DNA of 64,000 nt from Candidatus Woesearchaeota archaeon (GTDB taxonomy: Archaea; Nanobdellota; Nanobdellia; Pacearchaeales; GW2011-AR1). Made by a program: the position numbers and the translations under genes. The stretch is taken from assembly GCA_964419155.1 (NCBI GenBank), contig CAYQOK010000001.1, positions 3,623-67,622 of the forward strand. Reading direction: 5' to 3'. The notes under the pieces were generated by a model. The model did not search any database and was not told the origin of the DNA. It was given only the letters and a program-made list of their open reading frames with translations. Shown piece by piece: positions 18,808 through 61,796 of the stretch. Every line of letters begins with the position of its first letter. Positions within the stretch are counted from its first letter, which is position 1.

Positions 18808-18808
18808 A

Positions 18809-20923: not shown

Positions 20924-20939
20924 TTTTTTTTATTATTTT

Positions 20940-21221
20940 TTATTTTTTGAAAATTCTTCTGAAAAAACTTTTTTTTTCAGGTTTAATATCTTCTTTTTTT
21001 AATTCTAAATAATTTTCATAAGTAATATTTGGTTTTTCTTTATTTTTTTCAGTTTCAGAATTAGATTGTTTTTTTAAGATAGTTATTGCATGATTAATTG
21101 AGGTTCTACTATATCCCTGTTTCATTAGTGCATAGTATAATCCTTCTACTTTATATCCTTTTTTAATATTTTTTCTAAGATATTCTACTATTTTTTGTGT
21201 TTGTGTATCTGGTTGTTCCAT
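20940..21221 (-). CDS. Hypothetical protein
   Basis: 93 aa, Lys-rich, possible HTH-like N-terminus. No motif. Confidence 0.25.
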   Translation of the reverse strand: MEQPDTQTQKIVEYLRKNIKKGYKVEGLYYALMKQGYSRTSINHAITILKKQSNSETEKNKEKPNITYENYLELKKEDIKPEKKSFFRRIFKK

Positions 21222-21428
21222 TTTAGTCTAATTAAGATATCAAAAATAATTGCAGCGAGTATAAAAGTCTTTCTAAACAAAAATTGTTACTTTGGAGGGT
21301 AAAATAACTTTTAGAGAAAATTCCTAATTTAATTATTTTCTTTATTAAATTAAAAGATTATTTAAAAACCAACAACTTTTTATATTATCTGATTTTTAGA
21401 TAAGTGTAGTAATTAAAAAAAGAGAATA

Positions 21429-45603: not shown

Positions 45604-48360
45604 ATGGAAGAAGAAAAAATAATTGAACAAAGAAGAAAAAATTTTATTAGTTCATTAAAGAAAAATACTTTTTTAATAACAATTATATTTTTATTAATTG
45701 CCCTAGTTCTCGGAGTTTATATTAGGAGTCTTCCTATGAAGAGTCATGGAGATAATCCTGGTTTGTGGGATATTTCCACTGATTCGTGGACCTTGGGCCC
45801 TGATTTAGATCCTTTTTTGTTTCTAAGATATGCAGAGTTAATTGTAGAACAAGGAAAAATTCCTGAGATAGATACTCTAAGATATGTTCCATTGGGATTT
45901 GAAACTTCAAGAGAAACACAGTTATTACCTTATCTTATTGCATACACTTATAAGTTTTTAAATTTGTTTATGAATCCAACTATTGCTTTTGCAGGAGTTA
46001 TTCTTCCTGTAATTATGTTTGGATTAACTGTGATTGCTTTCTTTTTATTTGTAAGAGAGTTATTTATTGATTTTGAGTTTTTTGAAAAATCAAGGAGGAA
46101 AATAATTGCAAATTCTATTTCACTAATATCTACTTTCTTAATGATTGTTGCACCATCATTTTTATCAAGAACAATTGCTGGAATTCCTGAAAAAGAATCT
46201 GTTAGTTTCTTTTTTATGTTTCTCTGTTTTTATTTATTTTTAAAAGCATGGAAATCTGAAAATAAGAAAAGATTAGTTATTTTTAGTGTTCTTGCTGGTT
46301 TATCAACTGCTGCAATGGGTCTTGTATGGGGTGGTGTTATTTATGTTTTTGTTACAATTTCAGTTTCTTTTTTAATAGGTTTTATATTAAATAAAACAAA
46401 AGAAAAAGAAATATTAGTATATGGAATTTGGTTTTTGGTTTCATTAGCAGGAATATTCTTTTTTACAGATAAATTTTCTTTAAAAGAATTTATTTCATCA
46501 CTTGATACTGGTTTAGCTTTTGTAGTATTTTTTATTTCAATAGTTCATATTATAGTATTAAAAACAAGATTATTAGAAAAAGAAAGTGTTAAGAAAAAAT
46601 TAAAACATCACATGCCTGAAAATTTTGTTTCTTTGGGTATTGCAATATTAATAGGTATTTTAGGTGTTTTGATTTTTTTTGGTCCTGGATTTTTTATTGA
46701 AAAAATAAGTGATTTAAATAGAATTTTATTTAAACCTGTTGAAGGAAGGTGGAATATTACTGTTGCGGAAAACAGACAACCTTATTTTACAGAATGGGTA
46801 GCAAATTTTGGCCCTAATATTAGAAACATTCCATTAATGTTCTGGTTGTTTTTTATTGGATCTGTAGTACTGTTTAATGATACTATTAAAAAATTAGATA
46901 AGAAAGATAAGGCTATATTGATAATACTCTATATATTATTCTTTTTTGGTTTAGTTTTTTCAAGATATTCTGAAGCAAGTTTATTAAATGGGGAAAATCT
47001 CATTAGTAAATTGTTTTATTATGGGACCTCTATATTATTTGGGGTATACTTAGCTTATTCTTATTTTAAATATTCAAAAAAGCAAGAAAATCCATTTGAA
47101 AAAATAAATTATGAAATAATCTTTTTATTTGTTTTATTTGTTTTAACTCTTTTTACAGCAAGGAGTGCTATAAGGCTTATTATGGTTCTTGGGCCAATAT
47201 CTCCTATATTTCCAAGTTATTTAATAGTTTCAAGCATATTTAAACTAAAAAACATTAAAGATGAAACAACAAGAGCTGTTGGATTATTTATTGTTGTTGT
47301 GTTATTATTTTTAATAGCATATATGTTTTTTGTTAATTTTCAAATTATTAAAGCTCAAGCCTCTGTATTTATTCCATCCTCTTATACAAATCAATGGCAA
47401 TTAGCAATGGAATGGGTTAGAGAAAATACTCAAGAAGATGATGTTTTTGCACATTGGTGGGATTATGGATACTGGATTCAATCAATGGCAAAAAGACCAA
47501 CAGTCACGGATGGGGGCAATGCAATAAGCTATTGGAATTATTTAGTTGGAAGATATGTTTTAACCGGAGATAATCAAAAACAAGCACTTGAATTTTTGCA
47601 TACCCATAATGCAGATTATATTTTAATAGATTCTAGTGATATTGGAAAATATACTGCTTTTTCAAGTATTGGAAGCAATAAAGACTATGATAGATTTTCT
47701 TGGGTTCCTATAATGGTATCTTCAAAACAAAAAAATATAGAGACCAGAAATGGAACTACAAGAATATATGAGGGCGGTTCTATTATTGATGAAGATATTT
47801 TATATGGTGAAAATGAAACTAAGATATTTTTACCGCAAGAAAGTTCTGCTATTATTGGGGTCATTATAGAGGTAGAAGAAAATAATGAAAGTATCAAACT
47901 TAAACAACCAAATGGAGTTTATTATTCTAATGGTAAGCAAGAAATTATCCCTTTAAGATATATTTACTATAATAATCAAATTTTTGATTTTAAAAAAGGA
48001 TTAAATGCAACTGCATTTGTTATCCAATTAGCTCAAAGTAATGGAAATCAATTGTTTTTAGATAATCAGGGTGCATTAATGTATTTATCTCCTAGGATGA
48101 TGAAAGGATTATTTGCTCAGTTATATTTACTAAATGATCCTTTTGATAACTTTGATGCATTTAAGTTAGTACATTCAGAAGATAGTATTTTAATTAATTC
48201 AGTAAATAAGCAAGGTGCTGATTTAAATGAATTTGTTTATTATGGTGGTGGTATTCAGGGGCCAATAAAAATATGGGAAGTTAATTATAAAGGTGATGAA
48301 GTAGTAAATCCTGATTGGCTTTTAACAACACAACCTAATTATATTGATTGGAAATTTTAA
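45604..48360 (+). CDS. aglB: Oligosaccharyltransferase AglB/STT3
   Basis: 'HWWDYGYWIQ' (WWDYG motif). 13 N-terminal TM helices plus a soluble C-terminal domain. Confidence 0.9.
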   Translation: MEEEKIIEQRRKNFISSLKKNTFLITIIFLLIALVLGVYIRSLPMKSHGDNPGLWDISTDSWTLGPDLDPFLFLRYAELIVEQGKIPEIDTLRYVPLGFETSRETQLLPYLIAYTYKFLNLFMNPTIAFAGVILPVIMFGLTVIAFFLFVRELFIDFEFFEKSRRKIIANSISLISTFLMIVAPSFLSRTIAGIPEKESVSFFFMFLCFYLFLKAWKSENKKRLVIFSVLAGLSTAAMGLVWGGVIYVFVTISVSFLIGFILNKTKEKEILVYGIWFLVSLAGIFFFTDKFSLKEFISSLDTGLAFVVFFISIVHIIVLKTRLLEKESVKKKLKHHMPENFVSLGIAILIGILGVLIFFGPGFFIEKISDLNRILFKPVEGRWNITVAENRQPYFTEWVANFGPNIRNIPLMFWLFFIGSVVLFNDTIKKLDKKDKAILIILYILFFFGLVFSRYSEASLLNGENLISKLFYYGTSILFGVYLAYSYFKYSKKQENPFEKINYEIIFLFVLFVLTLFTARSAIRLIMVLGPISPIFPSYLIVSSIFKLKNIKDETTRAVGLFIVVVLLFLIAYMFFVNFQIIKAQASVFIPSSYTNQWQLAMEWVRENTQEDDVFAHWWDYGYWIQSMAKRPTVTDGGNAISYWNYLVGRYVLTGDNQKQALEFLHTHNADYILIDSSDIGKYTAFSSIGSNKDYDRFSWVPIMVSSKQKNIETRNGTTRIYEGGSIIDEDILYGENETKIFLPQESSAIIGVIIEVEENNESIKLKQPNGVYYSNGKQEIIPLRYIYYNNQIFDFKKGLNATAFVIQLAQSNGNQLFLDNQGALMYLSPRMMKGLFAQLYLLNDPFDNFDAFKLVHSEDSILINSVNKQGADLNEFVYYGGGIQGPIKIWEVNYKGDEVVNPDWLLTTQPNYIDWKF

Positions 48361-48397: not shown

Positions 48398-49426
48398 ATG
48401 GATTATAATTTGATAATTTCATTAATCATAAGTCTTTGTTTGGTTTTAATTGTAATGCCTAGATGGATTAGAAAAACAAAAGAAATAAATTTTATCTGGA
48501 AAGATATGAATAAACCACATAATAATGATTTAGAAACAAAATGGGTTTCAGGTTCAGGGGGTATTGTGGTTTGTTTTTCTTTTATTATTGGGGTCTTATC
48601 TTATATTGCAATTAGAACTTTTTTAATTCAAACTCAGGAAAATACAATTGAAATTTTTGCATTACTAACTACTATATTAATTACCTTATTAGTTGGTTTT
48701 ATTGATGATGTTTTTGGATGGGAAAGAAAAGGATTGGCTATGAGAGTTAGAATTCTTTTAGTAATGGTTGCAGCAATCCCCTTAATGGTTATAAATGCGG
48801 GAGTTTCTTTTATTAATATTCCATTAATAGGTTTAATTGATGTTGGAATCCTTTATGCTATTTTTTTAATACCCTTAGGTGTTGTTGGTGCAGCTACCAC
48901 TTATAATTTTTTAGCTGGTTTTAATGGACTTGAAGCTGGACAAGGAATTATTATTTTAAGTTTTTTATCAATGGTAGCATATTTAACAGATTCAAGTTGG
49001 TTAGCGGTTATTGGTCTTTGTATGGTTTCGAGTTTAATTGGTTTTTATTATTTTAATAAAGTTCCAGCAAAAGTATTTCCAGGAGATGTATTAACATACT
49101 CTATTGGTGCATTAATTGCAGGAATGGCAATATTAGGAAATTTTGAAAAAATAGCTGTGTTTGTATTTATTCCTTATATTTTTGAAGTAATATTTAAGGT
49201 TAGGGGTAAATTAAAAAAACATTCTTTTGGAAAAGTTTTAGAAGATGGAAGTTTAGAAATGCCTTATGATAAAATCTATGGTTTAGAACATTTTTCAATT
49301 TATTTTTTAAAGAATTTTATAAAAAAGAAGAAAGTATATGAAAAAGATGTTGTTTATTTTATTTTTTCAATACAAATATTAATTTGTATATTTGCTGTTT
49401 TTATTTTTAAAGGGGCATTAGTTTAA
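48398..49426 (+). CDS. Polyprenyl-phosphate HexNAc-1-phosphate transferase (MraY/WecA/GPT family, AglH-like)
   Basis: 'LVGFIDDVFGW', 'NFLAGFNGLEAG' and 'VFPGDVLTYSIGALIAG' correspond to the three conserved cytoplasmic-loop motifs of the family. Confidence 0.8.
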   Translation: MDYNLIISLIISLCLVLIVMPRWIRKTKEINFIWKDMNKPHNNDLETKWVSGSGGIVVCFSFIIGVLSYIAIRTFLIQTQENTIEIFALLTTILITLLVGFIDDVFGWERKGLAMRVRILLVMVAAIPLMVINAGVSFINIPLIGLIDVGILYAIFLIPLGVVGAATTYNFLAGFNGLEAGQGIIILSFLSMVAYLTDSSWLAVIGLCMVSSLIGFYYFNKVPAKVFPGDVLTYSIGALIAGMAILGNFEKIAVFVFIPYIFEVIFKVRGKLKKHSFGKVLEDGSLEMPYDKIYGLEHFSIYFLKNFIKKKKVYEKDVVYFIFSIQILICIFAVFIFKGALV

Positions 49427-49427: not shown

Positions 49428-50660
49428 ATGAATTATATTCAAAGATTTTTAAAAAGTGATGTTGGAAAAGGGAGCCTTATTCTTTTTATTTTAATTAATA
49501 TTTATAATGTTATTAATTATTTATTTCATTTTTCAATGGCAAGGTTACTTAGTCCAGGCAATTATGCTATAATTGCTTCTATGTCTTCTCTTATCTACAT
49601 TTACACAGCTCCTGTTGAAGCTATACAAGGAATACTTTCAAATTATTCCACTCAGTTTAGTTCTGAGCTTGGAAAAATAAAAAATCTTTGGAAAAAAAGC
49701 ACAAAAAAAGGACTAATATATTCTATTAGTATCTTTATATTACTTTTTCCATTTTGTTTTTTTTTATCTAATTACCTCAATATTCCTTTTTGGGCATTAG
49801 TTTTAACAAATTTTACATTTGTTTTAATTGTTTTAGTTTCAATTAATAGGGGAATCTTACAAGGGAAAAAGCGATTTTATGGTTTGGGTATTAGTCTTAT
49901 AACAGAATCTTTAATTAAACTTGTTTTTGCTTGTGCTCTTGTTTTAATTGGTTTTAGTTATTTTGGAGCCTTAACTGGAATTTTAATTGGATTACTTCTT
50001 GGATTTGTTTTTTCATTTTATTTTTTAAAAGATATTCTAATCTCAAAAGAAGAAGAATCAAAAACACCTAATATCAAAGAGTATAGTTTTTCATTTACCG
50101 GAGCAATGATTGTAGTTGTTTTAATGTATAGTTTAGATATTTTATTAGCAAAAAGATTTTTTTCACCTGAAATTGCTGGAAAATTTGCTGTTTTATCAAT
50201 GCTTGGGAAAATGATTTTTTTTGGAACAATTCCAATTAGTAAAGCCATGTTTCCGATTTGTTCTGAAAGATATTATAAAAAACAAAAAACAAAAACAGTA
50301 TTTATTAAATCATTTTTAGGAATAGCAACATTATGTATTTTAGCAAGTACTTGTTTTTTAATTATACCTTCTCTTATAATTAAAATATTATTTGGTAATC
50401 AGTATTTAGATGTAGCAGATTCTCTTTTTTATGTTGGTATGGCTTATTCATTTCTTGCATTATCTAATAATGTTTTGTTTTATGGGCTTTCGATTAATAA
50501 ATTTAAAAAACCTTATTATTTATCAATTTTTTTAATAATGCAAATTGTTTTGTTATATTTATTTAACTCAACCATAATGCAGTTTTCATTAGCATTAATG
50601 AGCTCAAATGCAATAATGTTTTTATGTTTACTCTTATTAATATTATTTAAAAGAAAATGA
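49428..50660 (+). CDS. Wzx/AglR-like polysaccharide flippase
   Basis: 410 aa, about 12 TM helices, no soluble domains. Located between the GPT and a Dol-P-sugar synthase. Confidence 0.5.
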   Translation: MNYIQRFLKSDVGKGSLILFILINIYNVINYLFHFSMARLLSPGNYAIIASMSSLIYIYTAPVEAIQGILSNYSTQFSSELGKIKNLWKKSTKKGLIYSISIFILLFPFCFFLSNYLNIPFWALVLTNFTFVLIVLVSINRGILQGKKRFYGLGISLITESLIKLVFACALVLIGFSYFGALTGILIGLLLGFVFSFYFLKDILISKEEESKTPNIKEYSFSFTGAMIVVVLMYSLDILLAKRFFSPEIAGKFAVLSMLGKMIFFGTIPISKAMFPICSERYYKKQKTKTVFIKSFLGIATLCILASTCFLIIPSLIIKILFGNQYLDVADSLFYVGMAYSFLALSNNVLFYGLSINKFKKPYYLSIFLIMQIVLLYLFNSTIMQFSLALMSSNAIMFLCLLLLILFKRK

Positions 50661-51457
50661 AAAAAATAGCTATAATTATTCCTGCTTATAATGAAGAAAA
50701 AAGAATTAGAAAAACACTTAATGAATATTGTAGATATTTTGAAAAAAGTAAATTTTCTAAAACAGATGTTAAGATAATTGTTGTTGCAAATAATTGTAAT
50801 GATAAAACAGTTAAAATACTTGAAGAATTAAAAAAGAAATTTGAGAACTTAGAATATCTTGATTTAGAAAAGGGTGGAAAAGGTTTTGCAATTACAGAGG
50901 GATATGTTTATGCACTAAAAAAAGATTATGATTTTATTGGTTTTGTTGATGCTGATTTAGCTACTTCTCCAAAAGAATTTAATAAATTGATAAACAGCTT
51001 AGTTCAATCTAGTTTTGATGGGGTTATAGCAGACAGATATATTAAAGGATCTAAAGTCTATCCTTCTTTTGGTTTTAGGAGAATTGTTGTTAGTAGAATT
51101 TTTAATTTTATCGTAAGAGCCTTGTTTTTATTTTCTTATAGAGATACACAATGTGGTGCAAAACTATTTAAAAAAGATGTTATTAAAAAGGTCATTAAAG
51201 AAATAACAATTAGTCAATGGGCTTATGATATTGGATTCTTATATGCTTGTAAAAAAAATGGTTTTAAAATAAGGTCTATTCCAACTGTTTGGTATGAAAT
51301 GCCTGATAGTAAATTGAATATCAGTAAAGCTTCTGTTGAAATGTTCTTTGCAGTAATTCAATTAAAAATTCTTGTATCAAGATTTAAAAGGCTATTGACC
51401 CCAATAAAACCATTGATTTCAATAATTTATAAATATCTTAAAAACAGAAATAATTAA
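50657..51457 (+). CDS. GT2 dolichyl/polyprenyl-phosphate sugar synthase (DPM1-like)
   Basis: 'IAIIIPAYNEEKRI', 'GFVDADLATSPKEF' (DxD) and 'TQCGAKLFKKDV' match the DPM1 family QCGFK block. Confidence 0.75.
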   Translation: MKKIAIIIPAYNEEKRIRKTLNEYCRYFEKSKFSKTDVKIIVVANNCNDKTVKILEELKKKFENLEYLDLEKGGKGFAITEGYVYALKKDYDFIGFVDADLATSPKEFNKLINSLVQSSFDGVIADRYIKGSKVYPSFGFRRIVVSRIFNFIVRALFLFSYRDTQCGAKLFKKDVIKKVIKEITISQWAYDIGFLYACKKNGFKIRSIPTVWYEMPDSKLNISKASVEMFFAVIQLKILVSRFKRLLTPIKPLISIIYKYLKNRNN

Positions 51458-51464: not shown

Positions 51465-52577
51465 ATGGAAAATAAAAAAACATTTTTAATTTTAGGGAGT
51501 TTGCAGGCCCCTTTAACAGGTTCTAAGATTAGAAGTAGGTCAATTGCAAAATATTTAGCAAAAAGAGGCCATAAGGTAATTTATTTAGAACCTACTGATC
51601 CTAATTCAAAGGAAAATCTTAAAATTAAAGGGGTAAAAATAATAAAAACCAAATTTCCAAATTTGATTTTTAGTTTAGGAATGATTATTGCAAGTATTGA
51701 TAATCTTTTAAAAGTAAAAAAAGTAAAAAAAGTAGATTATGTTATTGCAACAAAACCCCTTCCTAGTTCTTGTTTAGCTGCATTAAAATTAAGAAATAAA
51801 GATACTAAAATAATTTTAGATATTGATGATTTAGAATATGCTTATTGGTTAAACAACAAACCCATTGCTTATCTTTTAAAAATATTTGAAAAATGGGTTA
51901 TAAAAAGATTTGATTATATCACAGTCCATAATAATTCATTAAGAAGATATGTTGAAAAAAGCCTTAAAATCCCATCTGAAAAAATATTATTCTTATCTCA
52001 GGGATTGGATCTAGACCATTACACTGTTAGGACTAAGAATAATTTTAAGAATAAAAACCAGATATTAATTGTTTATACTGCTTTTTTAGGTATTGCCTCA
52101 GATTTAATTCCTATATTAGAGGTATATAAAAACGCAAAAAAACAATTTAATAATATTAAACTAATTGTGGTTGGGGGCGGCCCTAAATTAAAAGAGTATA
52201 AGAGGTATTGTAAAAGAAACCACGTCCCTGTTTTATTTTTAGGTTATAAAGACCATAATGAGACTTTAAAAATTTTAAAATTTGCGGATATTACATTAAA
52301 TTATAATAAAAAAAATTTTGCAAATAAATTCAGATCCCCTATAAAATTAAGGGAATACATTCTCTTAGGTAAAGAGGTTGTAACAACAGATATAGGAGAT
52401 ACTGCATTATTTAAAAGATATATTTATATATCCAAGAATAATTTAAATGATTATCTTCTATGTCTTAAAAAGGCAATTAAAGTTAAAAAAAATATCAATG
52501 GGCCAGACTATATAAAAAAAGAGTGTGATTGGGATAAAATAATTAATAAATTTTTAAAAGATTTAAATGAAAAATAA
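51465..52577 (+). CDS. GT-B glycosyltransferase (GT4-like)
   Basis: 'LIVVGGGPKLKEYKRY' and 'LREYILLGKEVVTTDIGDTA' resemble the GT4 C-terminal half. Confidence 0.5.
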   Translation: MENKKTFLILGSLQAPLTGSKIRSRSIAKYLAKRGHKVIYLEPTDPNSKENLKIKGVKIIKTKFPNLIFSLGMIIASIDNLLKVKKVKKVDYVIATKPLPSSCLAALKLRNKDTKIILDIDDLEYAYWLNNKPIAYLLKIFEKWVIKRFDYITVHNNSLRRYVEKSLKIPSEKILFLSQGLDLDHYTVRTKNNFKNKNQILIVYTAFLGIASDLIPILEVYKNAKKQFNNIKLIVVGGGPKLKEYKRYCKRNHVPVLFLGYKDHNETLKILKFADITLNYNKKNFANKFRSPIKLREYILLGKEVVTTDIGDTALFKRYIYISKNNLNDYLLCLKKAIKVKKNINGPDYIKKECDWDKIINKFLKDLNEK

Positions 52578-54015
52578 AAAAATTTTGGTTATAAATCCTC
52601 CAAGGGTGGATCAAAGACCGGTAGTAAGAGAAGAAAGATTTGAACATAAGGATTTTGAAGTTATTTATCCCCCTTTAACTCTACTTTATTGTGCTGGACA
52701 AATAAAGAAGAACGTAAGTAATGTAGAAGTATCTTTTATTGATGCAATGGGATATAATCTTAATTTAGATCAAATAAAAGAAAAGTTTAAGATTATAAAT
52801 CCTGATATTGTTATAAGCAGGTTTGCTTTTGATACTTTTCATGAAGATCTTAGTTTTTTAGAAGAAATTAAAAAATGGAAAAAAGATATTATAGTTCTAA
52901 CTAGGAATAAAATTGTAGGAGATGTTAATGATTTAATTGAAAAATATCTCAAAAAATATCCTAAAATTGATTATTTTATCACTTCTGAACAAGATATTGT
53001 GATCCATAAAATAATAAAAGATATTTTAAATAAAAAAATTCCTGGCTCTTGCGCGTATATTAAAAAAAATAAATTATTCTTTTCAGAAAAGTATAAAGAA
53101 GATGAAAGTTTAGATGAAATGGCTTTTCCAGCATATGAATTATTACCTAAATCTCCTTGGCCTTATAAAAGTTCATTATTTCCAAAGGACTTTACATTAG
53201 TTATGAGTAGTAGAGGGTGTCCAAATCAATGTACTTTTTGTGCATATAGAAATCAAAAATGGAGGCCTAGAAGTCCTGAAAATGTAGTTGAAGAATTAAA
53301 GATGTTAAGAAAAAAATATAATATTAAAAATTTTGTTTATTTTGATGACACTATTTCTATAAATAAAGAAAGGTGTTTAAAAATTTGCGAATTAATGAAA
53401 GAAAATGGATTAACCGATATGAAATATGCTATTTGTACAAGAGTGAATGCAATTGATGTAGAGTTATTAAAAGCCTGGAAAGAAACAGGCTTAGAAGAGA
53501 TCTCATTTGGAGTAGAATCTGGATCTGAAAAAATATTAAAAATGACTCGCAAGGGTATAACTAAAAAACAAATCCTAAATGCTTTTGATTTGTGTAAGAA
53601 AATGAAAATAAAGGCCATTACATTAGTTATTTTAGGACTTCCTGGGGAAACCTTGAACACTATAAATGAAACAAAAGGGCTAATTAAAAAAATAAATCCT
53701 TTTTATTTACAATACTCTTTGTGTATTCCTTTTCCAAATACTCCTGCATATGATTATTATAAACAGAATAATCTTTTAATTCATGAGGATTATTCAAAAT
53801 ATAATCCCTTAACCCTGGATCCTGTTATGAGGACAAAAGATTTAAGTGCAGAACAATTAATAAAAGAAAAAGAAAAAGCATATAAGGAATTCATATTAAA
53901 CCCTAGATTTTTTTTAAATAAGATCTCCTTAACTGATTGGGCCTGGAATATTAGGGGATTAAAAATGTTCTTAGATAGGGTTAAAGGAATAATAAAAGAA
54001 AAGTATGTTAGATAA
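52567..54015 (+). CDS. B12-binding-domain radical SAM enzyme (class-B-like), paralog 1
   Basis: N-terminal Rossmann-like 'KILVINPP...YPPLTLLYCAG', then 'SSRGCPNQCTFCAY' (CxxxCxxC). 482 aa. Confidence 0.8.
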   Translation: MKNKKILVINPPRVDQRPVVREERFEHKDFEVIYPPLTLLYCAGQIKKNVSNVEVSFIDAMGYNLNLDQIKEKFKIINPDIVISRFAFDTFHEDLSFLEEIKKWKKDIIVLTRNKIVGDVNDLIEKYLKKYPKIDYFITSEQDIVIHKIIKDILNKKIPGSCAYIKKNKLFFSEKYKEDESLDEMAFPAYELLPKSPWPYKSSLFPKDFTLVMSSRGCPNQCTFCAYRNQKWRPRSPENVVEELKMLRKKYNIKNFVYFDDTISINKERCLKICELMKENGLTDMKYAICTRVNAIDVELLKAWKETGLEEISFGVESGSEKILKMTRKGITKKQILNAFDLCKKMKIKAITLVILGLPGETLNTINETKGLIKKINPFYLQYSLCIPFPNTPAYDYYKQNNLLIHEDYSKYNPLTLDPVMRTKDLSAEQLIKEKEKAYKEFILNPRFFLNKISLTDWAWNIRGLKMFLDRVKGIIKEKYVR

Positions 54016-55048
54016 AATGACAGATCAAACAAAAATTAAATATAGCATTATTATTCCAGTTTATAATTCTCAGGGAACAATTTTAGAATTATTAAATGCA
54101 TTAGAAAATCAAACAAAAAAAGATTTTGAGGTAATTATTGTTGATGATGGTTCTAAAGATAATTCACTTGAGTTAATCAGGGCGCATAAAAAAAATAAAA
54201 AAATTAATTATCCTATTAAATTAATCAAACAAGAAAATGCAGGACCTGCTAAAGCAAGAAATGTTGGAGCAAAACATGCTGCAGGAGATATTATTATTTT
54301 TATTGATTCTGATTGTGTTCCTACTAATGATTTTATCGAGAAAATAACCCTTCCAATTGAGTTACATAAAAATATATCTGGAGTTCAAGGGGAGTATTTA
54401 ACAAAAAATAAAGAATATTTAATTGCAAGATATGTTGGCTATGAAATTTATTATAGGCATGAGAGAATGAAGGGAAAAAATATTGATCATATTGCAACTT
54501 ATGCTTGCTTGTATAAAAAAGAAGATTTTGGAGAAGGATTTTTAGAAAAATTTTCTAGTGCAGATATGGAAGACACTGAATTCTCTTATAGAATCTCAAA
54601 AAGTGGAAAGAGATTAATTTTTGAGCCAAATGCAGTGGTTTTCCATCCCCATCCCCATAATTTAAAGAAATTTATTAAACAACAATTTAAAAGAGGTTAT
54701 TGGAGAGCTTTTGGATATGGAGGTCATCAAGAAAAAATCTTTAAGGATTCTTATATGGGAAGCTCTGTTGTTATTCAGGGAAGTTTAAGTCTTTTATTTT
54801 TTATTAGTTTATTTATTTCTGTATTAGAACTATTTTTAAAGATTAATAACTTTTTTTTATTCATTCCTCTGATTTTATTAGCTATGATTTATATCACAAA
54901 TCTAGGTTTTGGATTTTACTGTTATAGGTATGAAAAAAATATGATTTTTATTGCACCTTTAATTGCATCAATAAGATCTTTAGCTGGAACCGCTGGTTTT
55001 ATTAAGGGTGTTTGCTCTAAAATTTTAAGGAAATATAAAATTAGGTGA
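54005..55048 (+). CDS. GT2 glycosyltransferase with C-terminal TM helices
   Basis: 'YSIIIPVYNSQGTI', 'VIIVDDGSKDNS' and 'IIFIDSDCVP' (DxD). Two to three C-terminal TM segments. Confidence 0.7.
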   Translation: MLDKMTDQTKIKYSIIIPVYNSQGTILELLNALENQTKKDFEVIIVDDGSKDNSLELIRAHKKNKKINYPIKLIKQENAGPAKARNVGAKHAAGDIIIFIDSDCVPTNDFIEKITLPIELHKNISGVQGEYLTKNKEYLIARYVGYEIYYRHERMKGKNIDHIATYACLYKKEDFGEGFLEKFSSADMEDTEFSYRISKSGKRLIFEPNAVVFHPHPHNLKKFIKQQFKRGYWRAFGYGGHQEKIFKDSYMGSSVVIQGSLSLLFFISLFISVLELFLKINNFFLFIPLILLAMIYITNLGFGFYCYRYEKNMIFIAPLIASIRSLAGTAGFIKGVCSKILRKYKIR

Positions 55049-55055
55049 AGTTAAA

Positions 55056-56513
55056 ATGAAAGTTTTTTATTTGATTCCACAATATGTAAAAGGGTTTAGT
55101 AAATCATCTAGATGGCAAACTATCAGTAGAGGATATACATTAAGACATCCTGATTTTCAACTACAATCTGTTGCTGTTTTAGAAGAATCTGGTCATAAGG
55201 TTAAATTTTGTGATGCAACTGCTGAAAAAATTGAAAAAAAATTGGTTTTTGAAAAAATAAAAAAATTTAATCCAGATATGTTAGTAGTGTATTGTACAAC
55301 CCCTAGTATTTATGATGATCTATCTTATATTCAGGAGTTTAAAAAAAAATATCCTAATGCAATTAGTGTAGTTATTGGAGCTCATGTTTCAGTTGAGTGG
55401 GAGGATACATTAAAAATTGCTGGACCTAGTTTAGATGTAGTAGTTATAGGAGAATATGATTATAGTTTAAGAGATCTTGCTAATAAAGTTTCATTAGAAA
55501 AATGTAAGGGTATTGTTTATCAAAAAAATAAAAAAATAAAAATAAATGCTCCAAGACCTCCAGTACCTATTAATGAACTTCCTTTTCCTGCATGGTATCA
55601 TATTAAACCAGAAGATTATCCAGATCCTGGTAAATTAAATCCTTTTATTACTATTATTGGTAGTAGGGGGTGTGTTGGAAGATGTGCTTTTTGTTTAATG
55701 ACTAATACGCTTTATAAAACATTAAGATTAAAAGATCCAAAAAAGATTTGTGATGAAATTGAATATGATCTTAAATTATTCCCTTATTTAAAAGAAATTA
55801 TGTTTGAAGACGATACCTTAGGTGCAATATCTAAACATACTAATGAAGTTTGTGATGAAATAATTAAAAGAAAATTAAATAAAAAAGTTTCATTTGCATG
55901 TAATCTAAGAGTAGACACAAAAAAAGAATTAATCAAAAAATTAAAACAAGCAGGATTTAGATGGGCTTGTGTTGGATTTGAGTTTGGAACTAATAAATCT
56001 CTAAAGGCTGTTAGAAAAACAACAACAATTGAACAAGCTAAAGAATTTGCAAAAGAAACTGCAAAACAAGGTCTAAAGATTCATGGATGTTTTATGTTTG
56101 GGGCTCCGGGTGAAACAAAAGAAGATTGTAGAAAGACTATTGATTTTGCTAAATCATTGCCATTAGATACTGTTCAGTTTTCAGGTATTGCTGTTTATCC
56201 TGGAACTCCTTTATATGACTGGGCTAAACAAAATAATTATCTTGTTCCAAAAAACTGGAGGAACTGGGTTACTGAAGATTATAAACAAGCAGGTTTACTA
56301 GATTACCCTCAACTTTCAACAGAAGATATAAATAAATTTATTGATATTGGATTAAAAGAATGGTATGGTAGGCCTAAACAAATTTTGAGATTAGGATTTA
56401 AGGTTTTGAAGAATAAAGGAGAACGAAAAAGAATAATACATGGATTTAAAAGTTGGATAAAACTTTATTCTCCAAGCCCGAAAATTTACAAAGTTGGAGG
56501 CTACAATGAATAA
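55056..56513 (+). CDS. B12-binding-domain radical SAM enzyme (class-B-like), paralog 2
   Basis: 'GSRGCVGRCAFCLM' (CxxxCxxC) preceded by a Rossmann-like N-domain. 485 aa. Same architecture as 52567-54015 but clearly diverged. Confidence 0.8.
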   Translation: MKVFYLIPQYVKGFSKSSRWQTISRGYTLRHPDFQLQSVAVLEESGHKVKFCDATAEKIEKKLVFEKIKKFNPDMLVVYCTTPSIYDDLSYIQEFKKKYPNAISVVIGAHVSVEWEDTLKIAGPSLDVVVIGEYDYSLRDLANKVSLEKCKGIVYQKNKKIKINAPRPPVPINELPFPAWYHIKPEDYPDPGKLNPFITIIGSRGCVGRCAFCLMTNTLYKTLRLKDPKKICDEIEYDLKLFPYLKEIMFEDDTLGAISKHTNEVCDEIIKRKLNKKVSFACNLRVDTKKELIKKLKQAGFRWACVGFEFGTNKSLKAVRKTTTIEQAKEFAKETAKQGLKIHGCFMFGAPGETKEDCRKTIDFAKSLPLDTVQFSGIAVYPGTPLYDWAKQNNYLVPKNWRNWVTEDYKQAGLLDYPQLSTEDINKFIDIGLKEWYGRPKQILRLGFKVLKNKGERKRIIHGFKSWIKLYSPSPKIYKVGGYNE

Positions 56514-58452
56514 GAGATCAGACAAAATCATTGATAGTTTTATGGATTTATTTTATTCAAAAAACAAAACAAAACTTTGTGTTTTAATGTTAGCATTAAT
56601 TGGATTTATACTAAGGATTATCTCTGCTAGAAATATAGGAATAAGTGCAGATGATGCAGTACATGCTATTAGGCCAATTGGAATAATTGAAAGTGGTAAA
56701 ATGGTAGAATTAGGACAATCTTCGGCAATGTGGTATTATATTCAAGAAATTTTTTATAAGATATTTGGAGCTACTCAAATTGGTTCTAGATTTGCATCCG
56801 CATTGTTTGGTGCGGCGTTAATTATTTTAATTTACTTGTTTGTTAAACAAATATTTAAATCAGAAAAAATAGGTTTAATTGCATCTGCTTTGATTACATT
56901 TTCACCTTTTTTAATTAAAATGACCTTACCTGAGATGGATATTGTTGTGATGTTCTTTGTTATATTTTCAGGATTGTTTATCTTTAGATTTAATGAGTCT
57001 TACAAAAATAAAGATTTGTTTTTTGCAGGTTTTTTAATGGGAATTGCTGTTTTAATTAAGGTCTACTCATTATTTTTTGTAGGAACATACTGTATCTTTT
57101 TAATTTATAAGGGGGTTAAGAAAAAAAAGATTAATAAAAGGTTCATTAAAGGCATTTTGATTTTTGGGTTTACAATCTTTATTTTTACAGTTCCTACCTT
57201 AACTCATAATTATTTATTATACAAAGATAAAGGTTTTATGGATTTAATTTTTACAAATGTGTTTAAATTAGGTCTTGAAAAAGCAGAAGAACTTTATTCT
57301 TGGGGTGCAGGATGGATGCCTCATACAGATTATAAAGGATTTTTTTTAGGAAATCAAGTTAATTTTCAGGAAAATCCAGAAACCATATACAGACTTCCTG
57401 GATTTATTGTTCTTCTTTATTTAAGTTTTATGGAAGACCCAATTTTAATATTATTTGGATTATTAGGATTTATTTATTTGATATTAAAAAAACATGAAAA
57501 TTATCTTAGTTTTTTTATAATTACTTTTTTTGTACCTTTTATTTATCTTGGATCTCATATTCCAATGTTAAAACATTTTACATTTATCTTTGTTTTACTA
57601 GTTCCAATATCTTCTTATTTTATTTATAATCTAGGAACTGATATTATTAAAAAAAATAAAAAAATAAAATGGAAATATCTTCTTATTTTATTAATTTTAA
57701 TTAATTTATTATGGCTTGGAAAAGGAGTTGATGGATTAAATAGTCATTTTTATAGTGAAAGTGGTGAAGGTCAATTAATTAATTATAAAAATCAAGTGAT
57801 CACAGAAGATTCTTTAGTAGTAGTAGACAGTAGAATTTTCAGAGGTTTTATTGGTTGGTTATTTAATGATAGATTTTACTTAGAATCAAATTATTTTGGT
57901 GCTGCTTTAGAACAAAGTGCTCAATATGGAGATCCTGTTCCACTTGAAGTTTACTATGTTGAATGTGCAAAAGATGATTGTGGATGGGGAACAATAAAAA
58001 ATCAACCAGAGTTTAATAAAACAATGGAAGAATTAACTACTTGGTTTAGTAATAATTCAGAGTTAATAAAAGAAATAAAAGCAGTTAATAGATATGAATA
58101 TTATTTTCCTTTTATTACTTCAAATAAAGAAGAACCTATTTATAGGGTATATAGGTCTACATTAATGGTAAATCCATCTATTCTTTTAATTGCAAAATCA
58201 ACTCATAATGTTTTAATGTATCCAATTGGATATGATGAGACCATAGGCCCTGTTTTTGATGAGTATCAGGTTTATTCTGCTTTTGATGGTTTATTAGATA
58301 AAACAGCACACATTATTTTAAAAACAGGCTGGATCTTTTCTTTTATAAGTTTAGGGTTTTTGATTTATTTGTTTATTAAAGAAGATGATGAAGACATTAA
58401 AGAAATTAAAGAATCAAAAAATGAAGTTAACCATAGTAATTCCAGTTTATAA
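56494..58452 (+). CDS. GT-C fold membrane glycosyltransferase (PMT/ArnT, GT39/83-like)
   Basis: About 11 TM helices. First-loop acidic motif 'ISADDAVHAIRP'. Large soluble C-terminal domain. Confidence 0.55.
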   Translation: MEATMNKRSDKIIDSFMDLFYSKNKTKLCVLMLALIGFILRIISARNIGISADDAVHAIRPIGIIESGKMVELGQSSAMWYYIQEIFYKIFGATQIGSRFASALFGAALIILIYLFVKQIFKSEKIGLIASALITFSPFLIKMTLPEMDIVVMFFVIFSGLFIFRFNESYKNKDLFFAGFLMGIAVLIKVYSLFFVGTYCIFLIYKGVKKKKINKRFIKGILIFGFTIFIFTVPTLTHNYLLYKDKGFMDLIFTNVFKLGLEKAEELYSWGAGWMPHTDYKGFFLGNQVNFQENPETIYRLPGFIVLLYLSFMEDPILILFGLLGFIYLILKKHENYLSFFIITFFVPFIYLGSHIPMLKHFTFIFVLLVPISSYFIYNLGTDIIKKNKKIKWKYLLILLILINLLWLGKGVDGLNSHFYSESGEGQLINYKNQVITEDSLVVVDSRIFRGFIGWLFNDRFYLESNYFGAALEQSAQYGDPVPLEVYYVECAKDDCGWGTIKNQPEFNKTMEELTTWFSNNSELIKEIKAVNRYEYYFPFITSNKEEPIYRVYRSTLMVNPSILLIAKSTHNVLMYPIGYDETIGPVFDEYQVYSAFDGLLDKTAHIILKTGWIFSFISLGFLIYLFIKEDDEDIKEIKESKNEVNHSNSSL

Positions 58453-59101
58453 TGAAGAAAAAACAATTCTAGAAGTTATTCAAAGAGTTAAAGATTTAAA
58501 ATTAGGAATAGAAAAAGAGATAATTGTGGTTGATGATGGTTCTAAAGATAATAGTTATAAGCTTGCTAAAACTATGAATGGCATAATTTTGTTAAAACAT
58601 AAAAAAAATCTTGGAAAGGGCGCAGGTTTTAAAACTGCATTAAAACAATCAACGGGAGAGATTATTATAATCCAAGATGCAGATATGGAACTAGATCCTA
58701 TAGAAATATCTAAGGTTATAAAACCAATATTAGATGGAAAAAGTGAAGTAGTTTATGGATCAAGAAATCTGCATAATCCTGGAAAAGATAGAAGTCCTTT
58801 ATTTTATTTTGGAGGTTATTTTCTAACAAAAATAGTTAACTTTCTTTATGGGACTAAATTAACTGATGAACCTTGTGGGTATAAGGCATTTAAAACTAAA
58901 ACAATAAAACAAATTAAAATTAAAGCAAATCGTTTTGAATGGGAACCTGAAGTAACAGCAAAATTATCTAAAAAAAATATTAAGATCATTGAAGTTCCAG
59001 TTTCTTCAGTTTCAAGATCTATAAAAGAGGGTAAAAAATTAAGAAGAAGAGATGGAGTAATTGCCCTTTTAACTTTAATGAGATATAGATTTAAAGATTG
59101 A
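58421..59101 (+). CDS. GT2 polyprenyl-phosphate sugar synthase (DPM1/GtrB-like)
   Basis: 'LTIVIPVYNEEKTI', 'IIVVDDGSKDNS', 'IIIQDADMELDP' and 'EPCGYKAFKTK'. Start placed at the internal ATG at 58421. Confidence 0.75.
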   Translation: MKLTIVIPVYNEEKTILEVIQRVKDLKLGIEKEIIVVDDGSKDNSYKLAKTMNGIILLKHKKNLGKGAGFKTALKQSTGEIIIIQDADMELDPIEISKVIKPILDGKSEVVYGSRNLHNPGKDRSPLFYFGGYFLTKIVNFLYGTKLTDEPCGYKAFKTKTIKQIKIKANRFEWEPEVTAKLSKKNIKIIEVPVSSVSRSIKEGKKLRRRDGVIALLTLMRYRFKD

Positions 59102-59132: not shown

Positions 59133-60260
59133 ATGGGAGATATTACTATGAATATTTTAATTATTAATTGGAGAGATATTAAAAATAATGTTTTAGGAGG
59201 TTCTGAAATTTATTTTTATGAAATTGCTAAAAGATTTGCTGAAAATGGCCATAAAGTAACTTGGTTAACTTCTAGAAATAAAAATAAGAAAATTGAGTAT
59301 TATGAAGGTTTAAAAATTATAAGAATTGGCAATAAATGGACTACTTATTTTTTAATTCCATTAAAATATTTATTTTCATTAAAACATAATTTTGATGTTA
59401 TTGTTGATGTAGAAAATGGAATTCCTTTTTTTTCACCTTTTTATAAAAAAAATAAAAATACAAAAGTTATTTTACATATTCACCATATTCATAAAGAAGT
59501 TTGGTTTAGAGAGCTTCCATTAATACTTGCAAAAATTGGTTGGTTTTTAGAAGGAAGGATTATGTCAAAAGTTTATAAAAATTCAGGTATAATTACTTTA
59601 TCAGAAAGTTCTAAAAAAGAGATTTTAAAAAATAAAATAAAAATAAAATCAGAAGAAGTATTTGTTGTAAATCCTGGTATTAAAAAATATAAATTAAAAA
59701 ATATAAAAAAAACAAAAGAACCTAGTATTTTATTTTTAAATAGAATTAAAAAATATAAAGGGGTAAAAACTTTTTTAAGAGCAGTAAAATCATTACAGGA
59801 CCAGGATATTAAATTTAATACTTTAGTAGCAGGCACTGGAGATGATTTAAATGAAATGAAAGATTATGCAAAAAAACTTAAAATAAAAAATATTAAATTT
59901 TTAGGAAGAGTAAGTGAACAAGAAAAAATAAAGATTATGCAAGAATCCTGGGTTTTTATTAATCCTAGTATGAAAGAAGGATGGGGGATTGTAAATATAG
60001 AAGCAAATTATTGTGGAACTCCAGTTATAGGTTCAAATGTAGCAGGAATTAAAGATTCTGTTTTAGAAAATAAATCTGGTTTGCTTTTTGAATATAATAA
60101 TGTAGGTGATCTTGCTAATAAAATCAAAGAGATTATTAAGAATAAAAAGCTTAGGGATAATTTAAGTAAGGAATCAAAAAAATGGGCTAATAAATTTTCA
60201 TGGGAAAAATCTTTTAAAGATTATGAATCAGCTATAAATAAAATATTAAAAATAAATTAA
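59133..60260 (+). CDS. Glycosyltransferase family 4 (GT-B)
   Basis: 'PSMKEGWGIVNIEANYCGTPVIGSNVAGIKDSV' is the canonical GT4 E-x7-E block. Confidence 0.8.
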   Translation: MGDITMNILIINWRDIKNNVLGGSEIYFYEIAKRFAENGHKVTWLTSRNKNKKIEYYEGLKIIRIGNKWTTYFLIPLKYLFSLKHNFDVIVDVENGIPFFSPFYKKNKNTKVILHIHHIHKEVWFRELPLILAKIGWFLEGRIMSKVYKNSGIITLSESSKKEILKNKIKIKSEEVFVVNPGIKKYKLKNIKKTKEPSILFLNRIKKYKGVKTFLRAVKSLQDQDIKFNTLVAGTGDDLNEMKDYAKKLKIKNIKFLGRVSEQEKIKIMQESWVFINPSMKEGWGIVNIEANYCGTPVIGSNVAGIKDSVLENKSGLLFEYNNVGDLANKIKEIIKNKKLRDNLSKESKKWANKFSWEKSFKDYESAINKILKIN

Positions 60261-60266: not shown

Positions 60267-61796
60267 TTAAGAATTCTTTGCGTAGATAACTAAAGTAGGT
60301 GCATTATTTATATTAATAGCTTTTACAGGGGTATAATTAAATTCTGAAAGCCCTTGTTGAGAATAAGCCCATTCAGGATGTTTTTCAAATATAGAGATTA
60401 TAATATATTTAGGATTTAGTTCTGATATATTCTTAATTAAATCTTCTTTAGTATCTGAAAAAGCATAACTATGTCTTTCTGAATAATAAGTGTTTTGAGT
60501 TCTACTCTGTGTTAAAATAATATCTCCTGGTTTTGAATTTTGTTTAATCCATAATGCAGCATCTTTTACAGGGCCATAAGAAGAAATACTTCTTTTTATA
60601 ATATTATCTGAAGAAACTAATAGTTGATAACTTCCAGTAATTAAAATAAATATAATAAATATCATTGGAAGTTTTTTATGAATTTTTTTAAGATATTCAG
60701 AAATTTTTATAATTGAATAACTGATTATATAAAACATTGCAGGGAAAATCATAAAAATATATCTATCTTCATAGTGGCTTACTCCAAAACCAAAGTAAAG
60801 GAGAGGAATCATAATCCAAATTAAAATTAAAAATTTTGAATTTAAAAATTTGTTTTTATTTTTAAAAACAAGGTCTAATCCTAAAAATACATCTAAGAAA
60901 AATAAAATTCCTATGAAGAGAATTATTAAAAGTAAATTGTTTAAATAATATGGAAAGGAGTTTATATATTGCATAAATATACTCAATCCTGATGAAAATG
61001 TAATTCCTTCAAGAGCACCTGAACCTGCATGAATAATAGGATAAAGGGGGTGGCCTAATTTTAATTGATTCCAAATTAAATATGGGCTTACAATAATTAA
61101 TGAGATTATTCCAGATATCCAATAATCTTTATTTTTTAGAGCATTTAATCTTTCAGTAGATAATATATAAAGAATTAATATAACAAAAAATAAAAAAGTC
61201 GGAAATCTAATTAAGGTCCCTATTGCAATTAGTGGAAAAACAAGCCATGTTGCTTTTTGTTTTTTTAATAAAAACAAATAATAAGCTGATAATCCAAGAG
61301 TTATGTGCAAAACATCGACCATAATTCTCATTGAGTAAAAAAGATTAACATAAACAATGGAGTAAAAAAAAGAAGATAAAAGAGCAATATTTTTATTAAA
61401 TAATTTTTCGCCAACTAAATAAACTAAAAATACTGTAAAAACAGAGATTAAAATTAAAAAAAATCTAATAGATAGTTCTCCCATACCAATAAAATAAAAG
61501 AAAGATAATAAAATGGAAAATAAAATTGGTCTTCCTTCCCAAAAACCTGTTTCAGGTGTGTTTAATGCAATATTTTTTGCTTTTAATAAATACTCTGCCT
61601 CATCCCACCAAACAGCCTGATCTTTTGTTAAAGAAAAATAATAAACACGAACAAGGAAAGAAAATAGCAAAATTAGTATCAAGAATACCAATGGTTTATT
61701 TTTAAAAAAATTAATTATATTTTTTTTAGTTTCTTTTTTCTTTTTTTCAAGTTCTTTTGAATCTTCTAAAGCATTTTCTTTTAGATCTTCACCCAT
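60267..61796 (-). CDS. GT-C fold membrane glycosyltransferase (ArnT/PMT-like)
   Basis: More than 10 TM helices. First-loop 'VWWDEAEYLLKAK' resembles the ArnT/PMT DE motif. Short soluble C-terminus. Confidence 0.5.
   Translation of the reverse strand: MGEDLKENALEDSKELEKKKKETKKNIINFFKNKPLVFLILILLFSFLVRVYYFSLTKDQAVWWDEAEYLLKAKNIALNTPETGFWEGRPILFSILLSFFYFIGMGELSIRFFLILISVFTVFLVYLVGEKLFNKNIALLSSFFYSIVYVNLFYSMRIMVDVLHITLGLSAYYLFLLKKQKATWLVFPLIAIGTLIRFPTFLFFVILILYILSTERLNALKNKDYWISGIISLIIVSPYLIWNQLKLGHPLYPIIHAGSGALEGITFSSGLSIFMQYINSFPYYLNNLLLIILFIGILFFLDVFLGLDLVFKNKNKFLNSKFLILIWIMIPLLYFGFGVSHYEDRYIFMIFPAMFYIISYSIIKISEYLKKIHKKLPMIFIIFILITGSYQLLVSSDNIIKRSISSYGPVKDAALWIKQNSKPGDIILTQSRTQNTYYSERHSYAFSDTKEDLIKNISELNPKYIIISIFEKHPEWAYSQQGLSEFNYTPVKAININNAPTLVIYAKNS

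Follow-up and report, generated by a model that had tools for sequence, protein, structure and literature searches.

What two radical S-adenosylmethionine (radical-SAM) enzymes do on either side of a membrane glycosyltransferase, within a gene cluster that begins with an AglB oligosaccharyltransferase, is the question raised by a 64,000-nucleotide stretch of DNA from a Candidatus Woesearchaeota archaeon (assembly GCA_964419155.1, contig CAYQOK010000001.1, positions 3,623 to 67,622; this whole stretch is denoted here as the window). A preliminary description had noticed two radical-SAM paralogs of 482 and 485 residues (rSAM1 and rSAM2) separated by a glycosyltransferase of family 2 (GT2mid), had taken both to bind B12, and had proposed GenK/Fom3-like chemistry on a glycan or lipid carrier as an unusual, perhaps undescribed step in a reduced archaeon. 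The three open reading frames (ORFs) are indeed found where they had been placed, all on the plus strand (Table 1), and orthologs at 70–98% identity are known, so that they represent genuine genes and not chance ORFs. Both enzymes are members of the radical-SAM superfamily, with PF04055 scores well above the cutoff of 29.5 bits, and carry the expected CxxxCxxC motif (C218/C222/C225 in rSAM1 and C206/C210/C213 in rSAM2), which is invariant across each of the two families; their paralogy is likewise borne out by an identity of 28% over 398 residues (E=3e-32). Nevertheless, the object that emerges is narrower than the one described, namely rSAM2 and its GT2 partner instead of two B12 enzymes, yet it is also broader, being a cassette that crosses domains. 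To judge by its sequence, rSAM2 is a member of a widespread sister family of HpnJ, with a function so far unassigned.

The placement of rSAM2 came from its comparison with the NCBIfam models. The best match was HpnJ (TIGR03471), with 304 bits over the full length of the protein, and four rSAM2 orthologs from other phyla gave 338–357 bits, also over their full length; the next-best families, BchE or ApyD, reached about 100–120 bits. When aligned with a bona fide HpnJ encoded on a Mycetohabitans megaplasmid, rSAM2 showed 30% identity over 468 residues (E=4e-65), and both proteins display equal length and domain order and share the β4 Gly and the GE motif discussed below. In a neighbor-joining distance tree, constructed with a subsample of 119 B12-like radical-SAM proteins and an outgroup without Fom3, MoeK5 or GenK, the rSAM2 family grouped with three HpnJ sequences and some ten intermediates in a split recovered in 100 of 100 bootstraps, with rSAM1 outside, and the rSAM1 and rSAM2 families were each supported at 100%. 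By this monophyly, rSAM2 falls within a broader HpnJ-like clade that excludes the other B12-like radical-SAM proteins. The outgroup was drawn from scans of genome and metagenome contigs with an rSAM1 alignment, which, owing to a generic RGCPxxCxFC pattern, returned at least two true rSAM1 orthologs and about 160 distant paralogs among the matches listed; these paralogs also provided the control set for the analysis of gene neighborhoods. In agreement with the tree, all three HpnJ sequences have the rSAM2 residue at 62 of the 110 positions conserved within the rSAM2 family, and rSAM1 has it at 31.

The family defined in this way is large. More than 2,400 rSAM2 homologs were detected at E<=1e-10, and the 120 listed are all at least 47% identical to rSAM2, with a mean column identity of 65% across 40 family sequences. 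Identity is about 70% in close archaeal relatives (one homolog, 68% identical, is labelled Nanoarchaeota) and about 50% in members from Woesebacteria, Elusimicrobia, Nitrospirota, Sedimentisphaerales, Thermodesulfobacteriota and Altiarchaeota. The possibility that the cassette was an invention specific to DPANN archaea was discarded in view of these bacterial orthologs. The intermediates in the HpnJ/rSAM2 clade include a Thaumarchaeota enzyme and one from Lawsonia. The latter, 34% identical to rSAM2, is encoded on a 27-kb plasmid of the obligate intracellular pathogen Lawsonia intracellularis (locus L175, NC_008012.1, record 8304-21898), where it is surrounded by two GT2s, two DUF2304 proteins, a SIS-domain protein, a second radical-SAM enzyme, five class I methyltransferases, a HAD-IIIA hydrolase and a GHMP kinase, a gene content that suggests a heavily tailored, heptose-like surface sugar.

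Whether these enzymes use cobalamin had to be considered separately for each of them because membership in the B12 radical-SAM similarity network is not sufficient: AprD4 and ArsL homologs lie inside that network and yet bind no cobalamin (PMC12931638). The hallmarks of the cobalamin-binding domain are the so-called downstream motif after strand β3 (G/A-x-S/T-x-X in general, A-x-S-x-Y in TokK), a Gly after β4 and a GE pair before helix α5 (PMC9204698). All three were identified at the predicted positions in rSAM2, as T82-P-S84-I-Y86, G108-A-H110 and G132-E133, respectively, and in 40 rSAM2 orthologs G108 and E133 are invariant, with G132 being conserved in 37. Moreover, rSAM2 exceeds the PF02310 cutoff of 32.1 bits, and its AlphaFold model (pLDDT 88.7, pTM 0.89) contains a five-stranded Rossmann domain. 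Judging from these motifs and from the model, rSAM2 probably binds cobalamin. As for the supply of this cofactor, no cobalamin genes were found among the approximately 40 window ORFs scanned. The loop connecting β1 and α1 in rSAM2 (residues 17-32, window:55104-55151) contains the invariant residues S17, R19, R25, R30, H31 and P32. H31 lies just before α1, roughly at the site of the cobalt-ligating His of MetH, and is replaced by Tyr in HpnJ.

The situation is different for rSAM1. Although about half of its listed orthologs do match PF02310, some of them weakly or faintly, a Pfam scan detected no such match in rSAM1 at E<0.01, and the cobalamin motifs have been lost throughout the family. After β4, the sequence R113-N-K replaces G-x-H in all 30 members compared, whereas 94% of the other B12-like radical-SAM proteins collected have the β4 Gly, as do all three HpnJ sequences; after β3, the family shows R85-x-A/G-F-D89, with F88-D89 in place of T-P and without the β3 Thr/Ser. 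The N-terminal domain of the rSAM1 model (pLDDT 93.2) adopts a Rossmann fold, albeit a degenerate one, and its best match in the PDB was AprD4 (TM 0.73-0.78). Among the NCBIfam models, rSAM1 exhibited no specific affinity (HpnJ 167 bits, BchE 152.9 bits), and the BchE model (TIGR02026, cutoff 481 bits) accepts neither rSAM1 nor rSAM2 (121.9 bits). Considering the lack of PF02310, the family-wide loss of the β4 Gly and the structural resemblance to AprD4, the use of cobalamin by rSAM1 is doubtful, and sequence and model together indicate that the protein probably does not bind it. The earlier view that both enzymes are B12-binding can therefore be retained inasmuch as both belong to the B12-domain radical-SAM superfamily and rSAM2 passes PF02310, but the notion of two B12 enzymes had to be abandoned for rSAM1 on the evidence of its motifs. 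Lacking a cobalamin pocket, rSAM1 would probably carry out a cobalamin-independent radical reaction on a sugar, as AprD4 does. The rSAM1 orthologs constitute a small family (about 57 members) with an invariant loop of the NPPRVxGxPVVREERFEHKD type, and another B12-like radical-SAM gene is always found within a few kb of them; a GT4-family glycosyltransferase gene usually adjoins (within 3.5 kb in four of six orthologs). In rSAM1, the β1-α1 loop (residues 10-30, window:52594-52656) has N10, P12, V19, R21, E22, R24 and E26 as invariant positions. Thus, this long loop, the counterpart of the 'His loop' of MetH, contains family-specific invariant charged residues in both the rSAM1 and rSAM2 families.

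AprD4 (PDB 6FD2) deserves a closer look, as it was the best structural match of both models (TM 0.71-0.78, followed by MgmA, TsrM, OxsB, CysS and TokK) and also the top PDB sequence match of rSAM1 and rSAM2. It is a radical-SAM 1,2-diol dehydratase that works without cobalamin and has the aminoglycoside paromamine as its substrate, so that it shares with the archaeal enzymes a Rossmann-like N-terminal domain followed by the radical-SAM core, and a sugar substrate. As proposed for rSAM1, it belongs to the B12 radical-SAM network without having bound cobalamin (PMC12931638). However, it is only 17-19% identical to rSAM1 and rSAM2, it has a partner reductase and participates in antibiotic biosynthesis and not in a membrane glycan pathway, and rSAM2, unlike AprD4, keeps the cobalamin motifs.

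A second line of evidence was derived from the gene neighborhoods. Nine independent rSAM2 contexts were compared, the window included, which is a small sample, and in eight of them a GT2mid ortholog was found within 3.5 kb of rSAM2 (in the ninth, within 7 kb), versus only 6 of 114 other B12-like radical-SAM genes (Fisher p=2.5e-8), this control being biased by its retrieval through the rSAM1-alignment scans mentioned above. A GT2 adjoins rSAM2 orthologs in archaea and in five bacterial lineages. In addition, a small GT2 (225-250 residues), often followed by DUF2304, flanks the rSAM2 orthologs in seven of eight contexts, and a PMT_2 gene is present in six of eight. No aglB gene was observed in the fetched flanks of the bacterial contexts, which indicates that the cassette is independent of AglB and, together with its wide occurrence in bacteria, contradicts the idea of a peculiarity of reduced archaea.

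The preliminary description had suggested checking whether the triad is conserved beside aglB in related DPANN genomes, and such conservation was seen in part. Downstream of aglB, two archaeal contigs from relatives, L001 and L179, show the same arrangement of radical-SAM, GT2 and radical-SAM genes. The former keeps the gene order of the window but carries a third B12-domain radical-SAM gene (459 residues, L001:8608-9987) between GT2mid and rSAM2. In L179, the genes from aglB to GT2a are kept, and GT4a and rSAM1 have given way to genes for a polysaccharide deacetylase, for a methyltransferase and for another radical-SAM paralog (L179:7538-8977), which gives only 153 bits to rSAM1; it is followed by orthologs of GT2mid (398 bits), rSAM2 (808 bits), PMT_2 (653 bits), GT2b and GT4b. 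The PMT_2 ortholog after rSAM2 is conserved in L001 as well (751 bits). The radical-SAM content of these operons looks like the result of a modular swapping of tailoring enzymes. Since the upstream radical-SAM gene can be exchanged whereas rSAM2 and GT2mid are kept, the latter two form the core, and the conserved unit is rSAM2 plus GT2mid, accompanied by a small GT2 of the polyprenyl-phosphate sugar synthase type and a PMT_2 glycosyltransferase of the GT-C type. In turn, rSAM1 and GT4a are a swappable accessory tailoring module, given that another paralog occupies the place of rSAM1 in L179.

In the window, the genes from aglB to GT4b (11 in total) form an unbroken run on the plus strand, in the order AglB, GT4-family phosphotransferase, Polysacc_synt_3 flippase, GT2a, GT4a, rSAM1, GT2mid, rSAM2, PMT_2 GT-C, GT2b and GT4b (Table 1). 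The junctions between them range only from -68 to +37 bp, and the run is therefore consistent with a single operon.

Table 1. Features of the AglB-containing operon and its surroundings in the window, and LPG_synthase_TM genes in loci of rSAM1 or rSAM2 orthologs.
Feature	Position	Strand	Evidence
AglB oligosaccharyltransferase, first gene of the operon	45604..48360	+	Pfam STT3 62 bits, STT3-PglB_core, AglB_core-like; WWDYG in translation
Polyprenyl-phosphate N-acetylhexosamine (HexNAc)-1-P transferase (GT4 / MraY-WecA family), initiating	48398..49426	+	Pfam Glycos_transf_4 E=1.5e-31
Wzx-type flippase candidate	49428..50660	+	Pfam Polysacc_synt_3 E=3.2e-15
GT2a, small GT2, polyprenyl-phosphate sugar synthase-like	50657..51457	+	Pfam Glycos_transf_2 E=3.6e-23; AglJ and PgfS matched weakly, ~45 bits
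GT4a, GT4-family glycosyltransferase, recurrent rSAM1 partner	51465..52577	+	Pfam Glyco_transf_4, Glycos_transf_1
rSAM1, 482 aa, radical-SAM, degenerate Rossmann N-domain	52567..54015	+	Radical_SAM PF04055 97.1 bits, E=1.7e-27
GT2mid, 347 aa, membrane-anchored GT2	54005..55048	+	Glycos_transf_2 PF00535 120.8 bits, E=7.5e-35; Glyco_trans_2_3
rSAM2, 485 aa, HpnJ-clade radical-SAM	55056..56513	+	PF04055 56.1 bits, E=6.7e-15; PF02310 50 bits
GT-C glycosyltransferase (PMT_2 / ArnT / AglS-like)	56494..58452	+	Pfam PMT_2 74 bits, PMT 38 bits
GT2b, small GT2, AglJ / PpgS-like polyprenyl-phosphate sugar synthase	58385..59101	+	PF00535 112 bits
GT4b, GT4-family glycosyltransferase, last of the plus-strand run	59133..60260	+	Pfam Glycos_transf_1 146.6 bits; ortholog in L001 and L179
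Second PMT_2-type GT-C, convergent with the operon	60267..61796	-	Pfam PMT_2 60.5 bits; ortholog in L001 and L179
LPG_synthase_TM genes in rSAM1/rSAM2-ortholog loci	L002:5135-6022, L169:4257-5375, L170:15615-16559		

The presence in one cluster of AglB (with its STT3 core and WWDYG motif), an initiating phosphotransferase, a flippase and several glycosyltransferases identifies an AglB-dependent N-glycosylation cluster, so the surroundings of the two enzymes, including the small GT2s, are those depicted originally. The match of AglB to the NCBIfam archaeo_STT3 model (84.6 bits) lies under the cutoff of 450, and the same holds for GT2b with AglJ (116.5 bits) and PpgS (59 bits), and for GT2mid, whose C-terminus is hydrophobic and whose best models were EpsD and MftF, with AglG at 52 bits. 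The HexNAc-1-P transferase has an ortholog in both L001 and L179. From its sequence family, the PMT_2 GT-C of the operon would use a polyprenyl-phosphate sugar as donor, outside the membrane; the start codon listed for its ORF is TTG, and an ATG follows five codons downstream. As listed, GT2b begins within the PMT_2 gene and shares its last 68 bp (58385-58452), but it has in-frame Met codons at codons 2 and 13 (MMKTLKKLKNQKMKL...), and its true start probably lies further downstream. A second PMT_2 gene and another GT2 are found directly downstream of the operon, on the opposite strand. Taken together, we infer that the product of the operon is a surface glycan built on a polyprenyl-phosphate carrier, and the tailoring of a sugar of this glycan or of a sugar on its lipid carrier, already advanced in the preliminary description, appears as the most sensible reading of the cassette.

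The substrate, reaction type and cofactor use of both radical-SAM enzymes are inferences, which can be brought together in the following scheme. A small GT2 and/or GT2mid would attach a hexose or hexosamine to polyprenyl phosphate, or to another membrane-anchored acceptor, at the cytoplasmic face of the membrane. Then, rSAM2 would abstract a hydrogen from this lipid-linked sugar and rearrange its carbon skeleton, preferably in an HpnJ-type reaction that contracts the pyranose ring into a five-membered carbocycle, with C-methylation, by transfer of a methyl group from methylcobalamin, being a nearly as likely alternative at this step. The modified unit would be flipped, whereupon the PMT_2 GT-C or AglB would transfer it to protein or to some other acceptor, in the case of AglB after its assembly on the AglB substrate, while rSAM1 and GT4a would perform a second radical tailoring step without cobalamin. 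Modification of sugars while lipid-linked is not without precedent, as exemplified by ArnD, DprE1/E2, PpgS/Rv3632/Rv3779 and Haloferax volcanii AglP, which tailors the glycan while it is linked to dolichol phosphate; MoeK5 methylates a lipid-linked sugar.

The rearrangement by rSAM2 is suggested by its sequence relationship to HpnJ and by analogy with the hpn system, and it is put forward tentatively, with confidence that stays below an even chance. In two true hpnJ loci (L176:4686-9334 and L177:4001-7741), hpnJ is accompanied by hpnI, which encodes a GT2, and by an LPG_synthase_TM gene, with the deacetylase gene hpnK being present in one of the two. The logic of the partners is similar since rSAM2 also adjoins a GT2, and in the hpn system the GT2 makes a membrane-anchored glycoside. 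Genes encoding LPG_synthase_TM (the MprF flippase domain) occur in three bacterial loci, one beside an rSAM2 ortholog and two beside rSAM1 orthologs, and their product may be the flippase of the modified lipid-linked head group. Similarly, the polysaccharide deacetylase in the L179 cassette parallels HpnK, although it belongs to a different family. A further parallel is the calditol synthase Cds (Saci_1489) of Sulfolobus acidocaldarius, a radical-SAM enzyme proposed, by analogy with HpnJ, to convert a lipid-linked glucose into a five-membered carbocycle (PMC13459092). Compared by description and not by sequence, it coincides with the proposal for rSAM2 in chemistry and substrate class, but Cds concerns the head groups of glycerol dialkyl glycerol tetraethers in acidophiles, whereas the cassette is located in a glycosylation operon and exists in bacteria too.

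A number of observations weigh against this reading. The reaction of HpnJ itself, the proposed contraction of the ring of bacteriohopanetetrol (BHT)-glucosamine that yields BHT cyclitol ether, has genetic support only and was never reconstituted (PMC13459092). The HpnJ model has an equivalog cutoff of 577.6 bits, which is reached neither by rSAM2 (304) nor by its orthologs (338-357) or rSAM1 (167). GT2mid displays no BLASTP similarity to HpnI (E=1.5), a scan of the cluster genes and of about 30 further window ORFs revealed neither HpnK nor a squalene-hopene cyclase, and the rSAM2 locus thus lacks the hpnI, hpnK and hopanoid-synthesis genes that would accompany an HpnJ. Tyr86 and His110 of rSAM2, close to the predicted cobalamin site, correspond to Pro and Lys in HpnJ and bring rSAM2 nearer to canonical class B methylases such as TokK. 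Class I methyltransferases are frequent neighbors and are not obviously needed for a rearrangement; the substrate sugar of rSAM2 and its lipid linkage are presumed from the gene context; the set with which rSAM2 was compared lacks Fom3, MoeK5, GenK, Cds and Grs sequences; and the neighborhood statistics suffer from the sample size and control bias noted above. The hpn system is, in addition, linked to hopanoids, whereas the archaeon has no hopanoid substrate and its rSAM2 sits in an AglB/GT-C glycan operon. Orthology of the cassette to HpnI-HpnJ-HpnK was consequently rejected, as GT2mid is unlike HpnI and there is no HpnK, and it was considered that the cassette may work like HpnIJK without being a member of that system.

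In the strongest competing reading, rSAM2 (and possibly also rSAM1) would be a cobalamin-dependent C-methyltransferase of class B, of the GenK/Fom3/MoeK5 type, and would methylate an unactivated carbon in a glycan or in a sugar linked to the carrier. Membership in the HpnJ clade does not fix the chemistry because HpnJ itself groups with the methylases Fom3 and MoeK5 in a similarity network (PMC9204698). Besides, rSAM2 keeps the TokK-like T-x-S-x-Y, the G-x-H after β4 and the GE before α5 (PMC9204698); furthermore, most characterized members of the superfamily are methylases (PMC12931638). Nevertheless, the sole characterized enzyme in the clade supported by all bootstraps is HpnJ, which is not a methylase, and the named methylase models yield 23.5-70 bits on rSAM2 (TsrM 23.5, KedN5 45, PhpK 69, HpnR 70) versus 304 for HpnJ. 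These values lie far under the methylase cutoffs of 500-700 bits, as do those of rSAM1 (HpnR 59.7, PhpK 104), which, missing a cobalamin pocket, could hardly be a methylcobalamin-dependent methylase. Hence, of the GenK/Fom3-like chemistry initially envisaged, the enzyme comparison is not supported, HpnJ being the closest characterized relative of rSAM2, and methylation survives as an outcome nearly as likely as rearrangement.

The alternative that the substrate is not lipid-linked, but a soluble nucleotide sugar or the finished glycan, is unlikely. It would imply a deoxygenation, deamination or epimerization of the AprD4/DesII type, supplying an unusual donor, and it draws on the fact that AprD4, the best match of both enzymes, dehydrates a free aminoglycoside sugar, and on the frequent location of the bacterial cassettes near genes for nucleoside-diphosphate-sugar epimerases or dehydratases, nucleotidyltransferases and aminotransferases. 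The archaeal operons, in contrast, contain transferases and no nucleotide-sugar enzymes, the tightly conserved neighbor is a membrane GT2 and not a sugar-nucleotide enzyme, and the AprD4 family model (NF033070) gives merely 60-75 bits (74.9 for rSAM1 and 59.5 for rSAM2) against a cutoff of 500. Much less probable still is an action on membrane lipid cores or on the dolichol carrier, such as the formation of Grs-type rings, Gmm-type methylation or ladderane-type chemistry. Even though B12-domain radical-SAM enzymes that modify lipids are known in archaea, namely GrsA/B and Gmm (PMC11214058), and Cds (PMC13459092), and TIGR04072, a model for lipid biosynthesis, reaches about 100 bits, this figure is one third of the HpnJ score, no lipid-synthesis genes are found nearby, and the bacterial orthologs (about 50% identity) always reside in glycosyltransferase clusters.

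With regard to the pathway as a whole, the operon resembles the Agl pathway of Haloferax volcanii (AglB, AglJ, AglG, AglD, AglR, AglS and AglP) in its types of component, which comprise AglB, GT2s similar to AglJ and AglG, a flippase and a GT-C of the PMT_2 type, but the window matches remain well under the equivalog cutoffs (for AglJ, 116 vs 325 bits). In the literature searched, no radical-SAM enzyme was found in the described Agl or other archaeal N-glycosylation pathways, and full-text searches yielded no paper linking radical-SAM enzymes to DUF2304, AglB clusters or DPANN glycosylation. The remainder of the window encodes an archaeal ribosomal-protein/SecY block, CDC48, FtsZ, aIF-2B and aIF5A, and its GC content is 24-31%, from which the host can be recognized as an AT-rich archaeon. 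Its assignment to DPANN draws on these archaeal markers, on the low GC content and on the Nanoarchaeota label of the 68%-identical homolog. Recent horizontal acquisition was dismissed, since GC is uniform along the window and there is no compositional sign of it.

Several other ORFs of the window may be mentioned here. On the plus strand, window:61886-62446 encodes 186 residues with no Pfam match, in which a pattern (ILEIG...DLIVSISTLEHIG) characteristic of class I SAM methyltransferases can be recognized; annotated methyltransferases exist at comparable island positions in L001 and L179. A 771-residue ORF (window:28-2343, plus strand) with Big_9 and cadherin-like domains is a candidate surface adhesin and a possible target of glycosylation. 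A GDSL lipase/acylhydrolase at the N-terminus (residues 50-246) is the only domain recognized in the 1287-residue product of window:11148-15011 (plus strand), and the protein could be a large secreted or surface lipase of an archaeon perhaps relying on host lipids. The sole Rfam match in the window is a tRNA (window:10767-10846, plus strand) of 80 nt, versus 71 positions in the model, a difference that could reflect an extended variable arm or else a small insertion.

What these findings mean depends on how much of the proposal is accepted. A large radical-SAM family, conserved across domains, tied to HpnJ and with a fixed GT2 partner, constitutes a testable hypothesis of a new type of sugar tailoring on lipid carriers, and the rSAM2 cassette offers a tractable system for HpnJ-type chemistry. 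Should rSAM2 need cobalamin, organisms regarded as metabolically minimal would have one more cofactor to depend on. In its fullest form, which is an improbable proposal when taken as a whole, the cassette would be exchanged horizontally among DPANN, candidate phyla radiation (CPR) and other anaerobes, and its HpnJ-type enzyme would make a carbocyclic, cyclitol or calditol-like unit from a lipid-linked hexose or hexosamine, to be placed on the cell surface by GT-C or AglB. Were this true, the surface glycans of prokaryotes would widely contain pseudo-sugars that resist acid and glycosidases and have so far gone unseen, and these reduced symbionts would have a hidden nutritional need for cobalamin.

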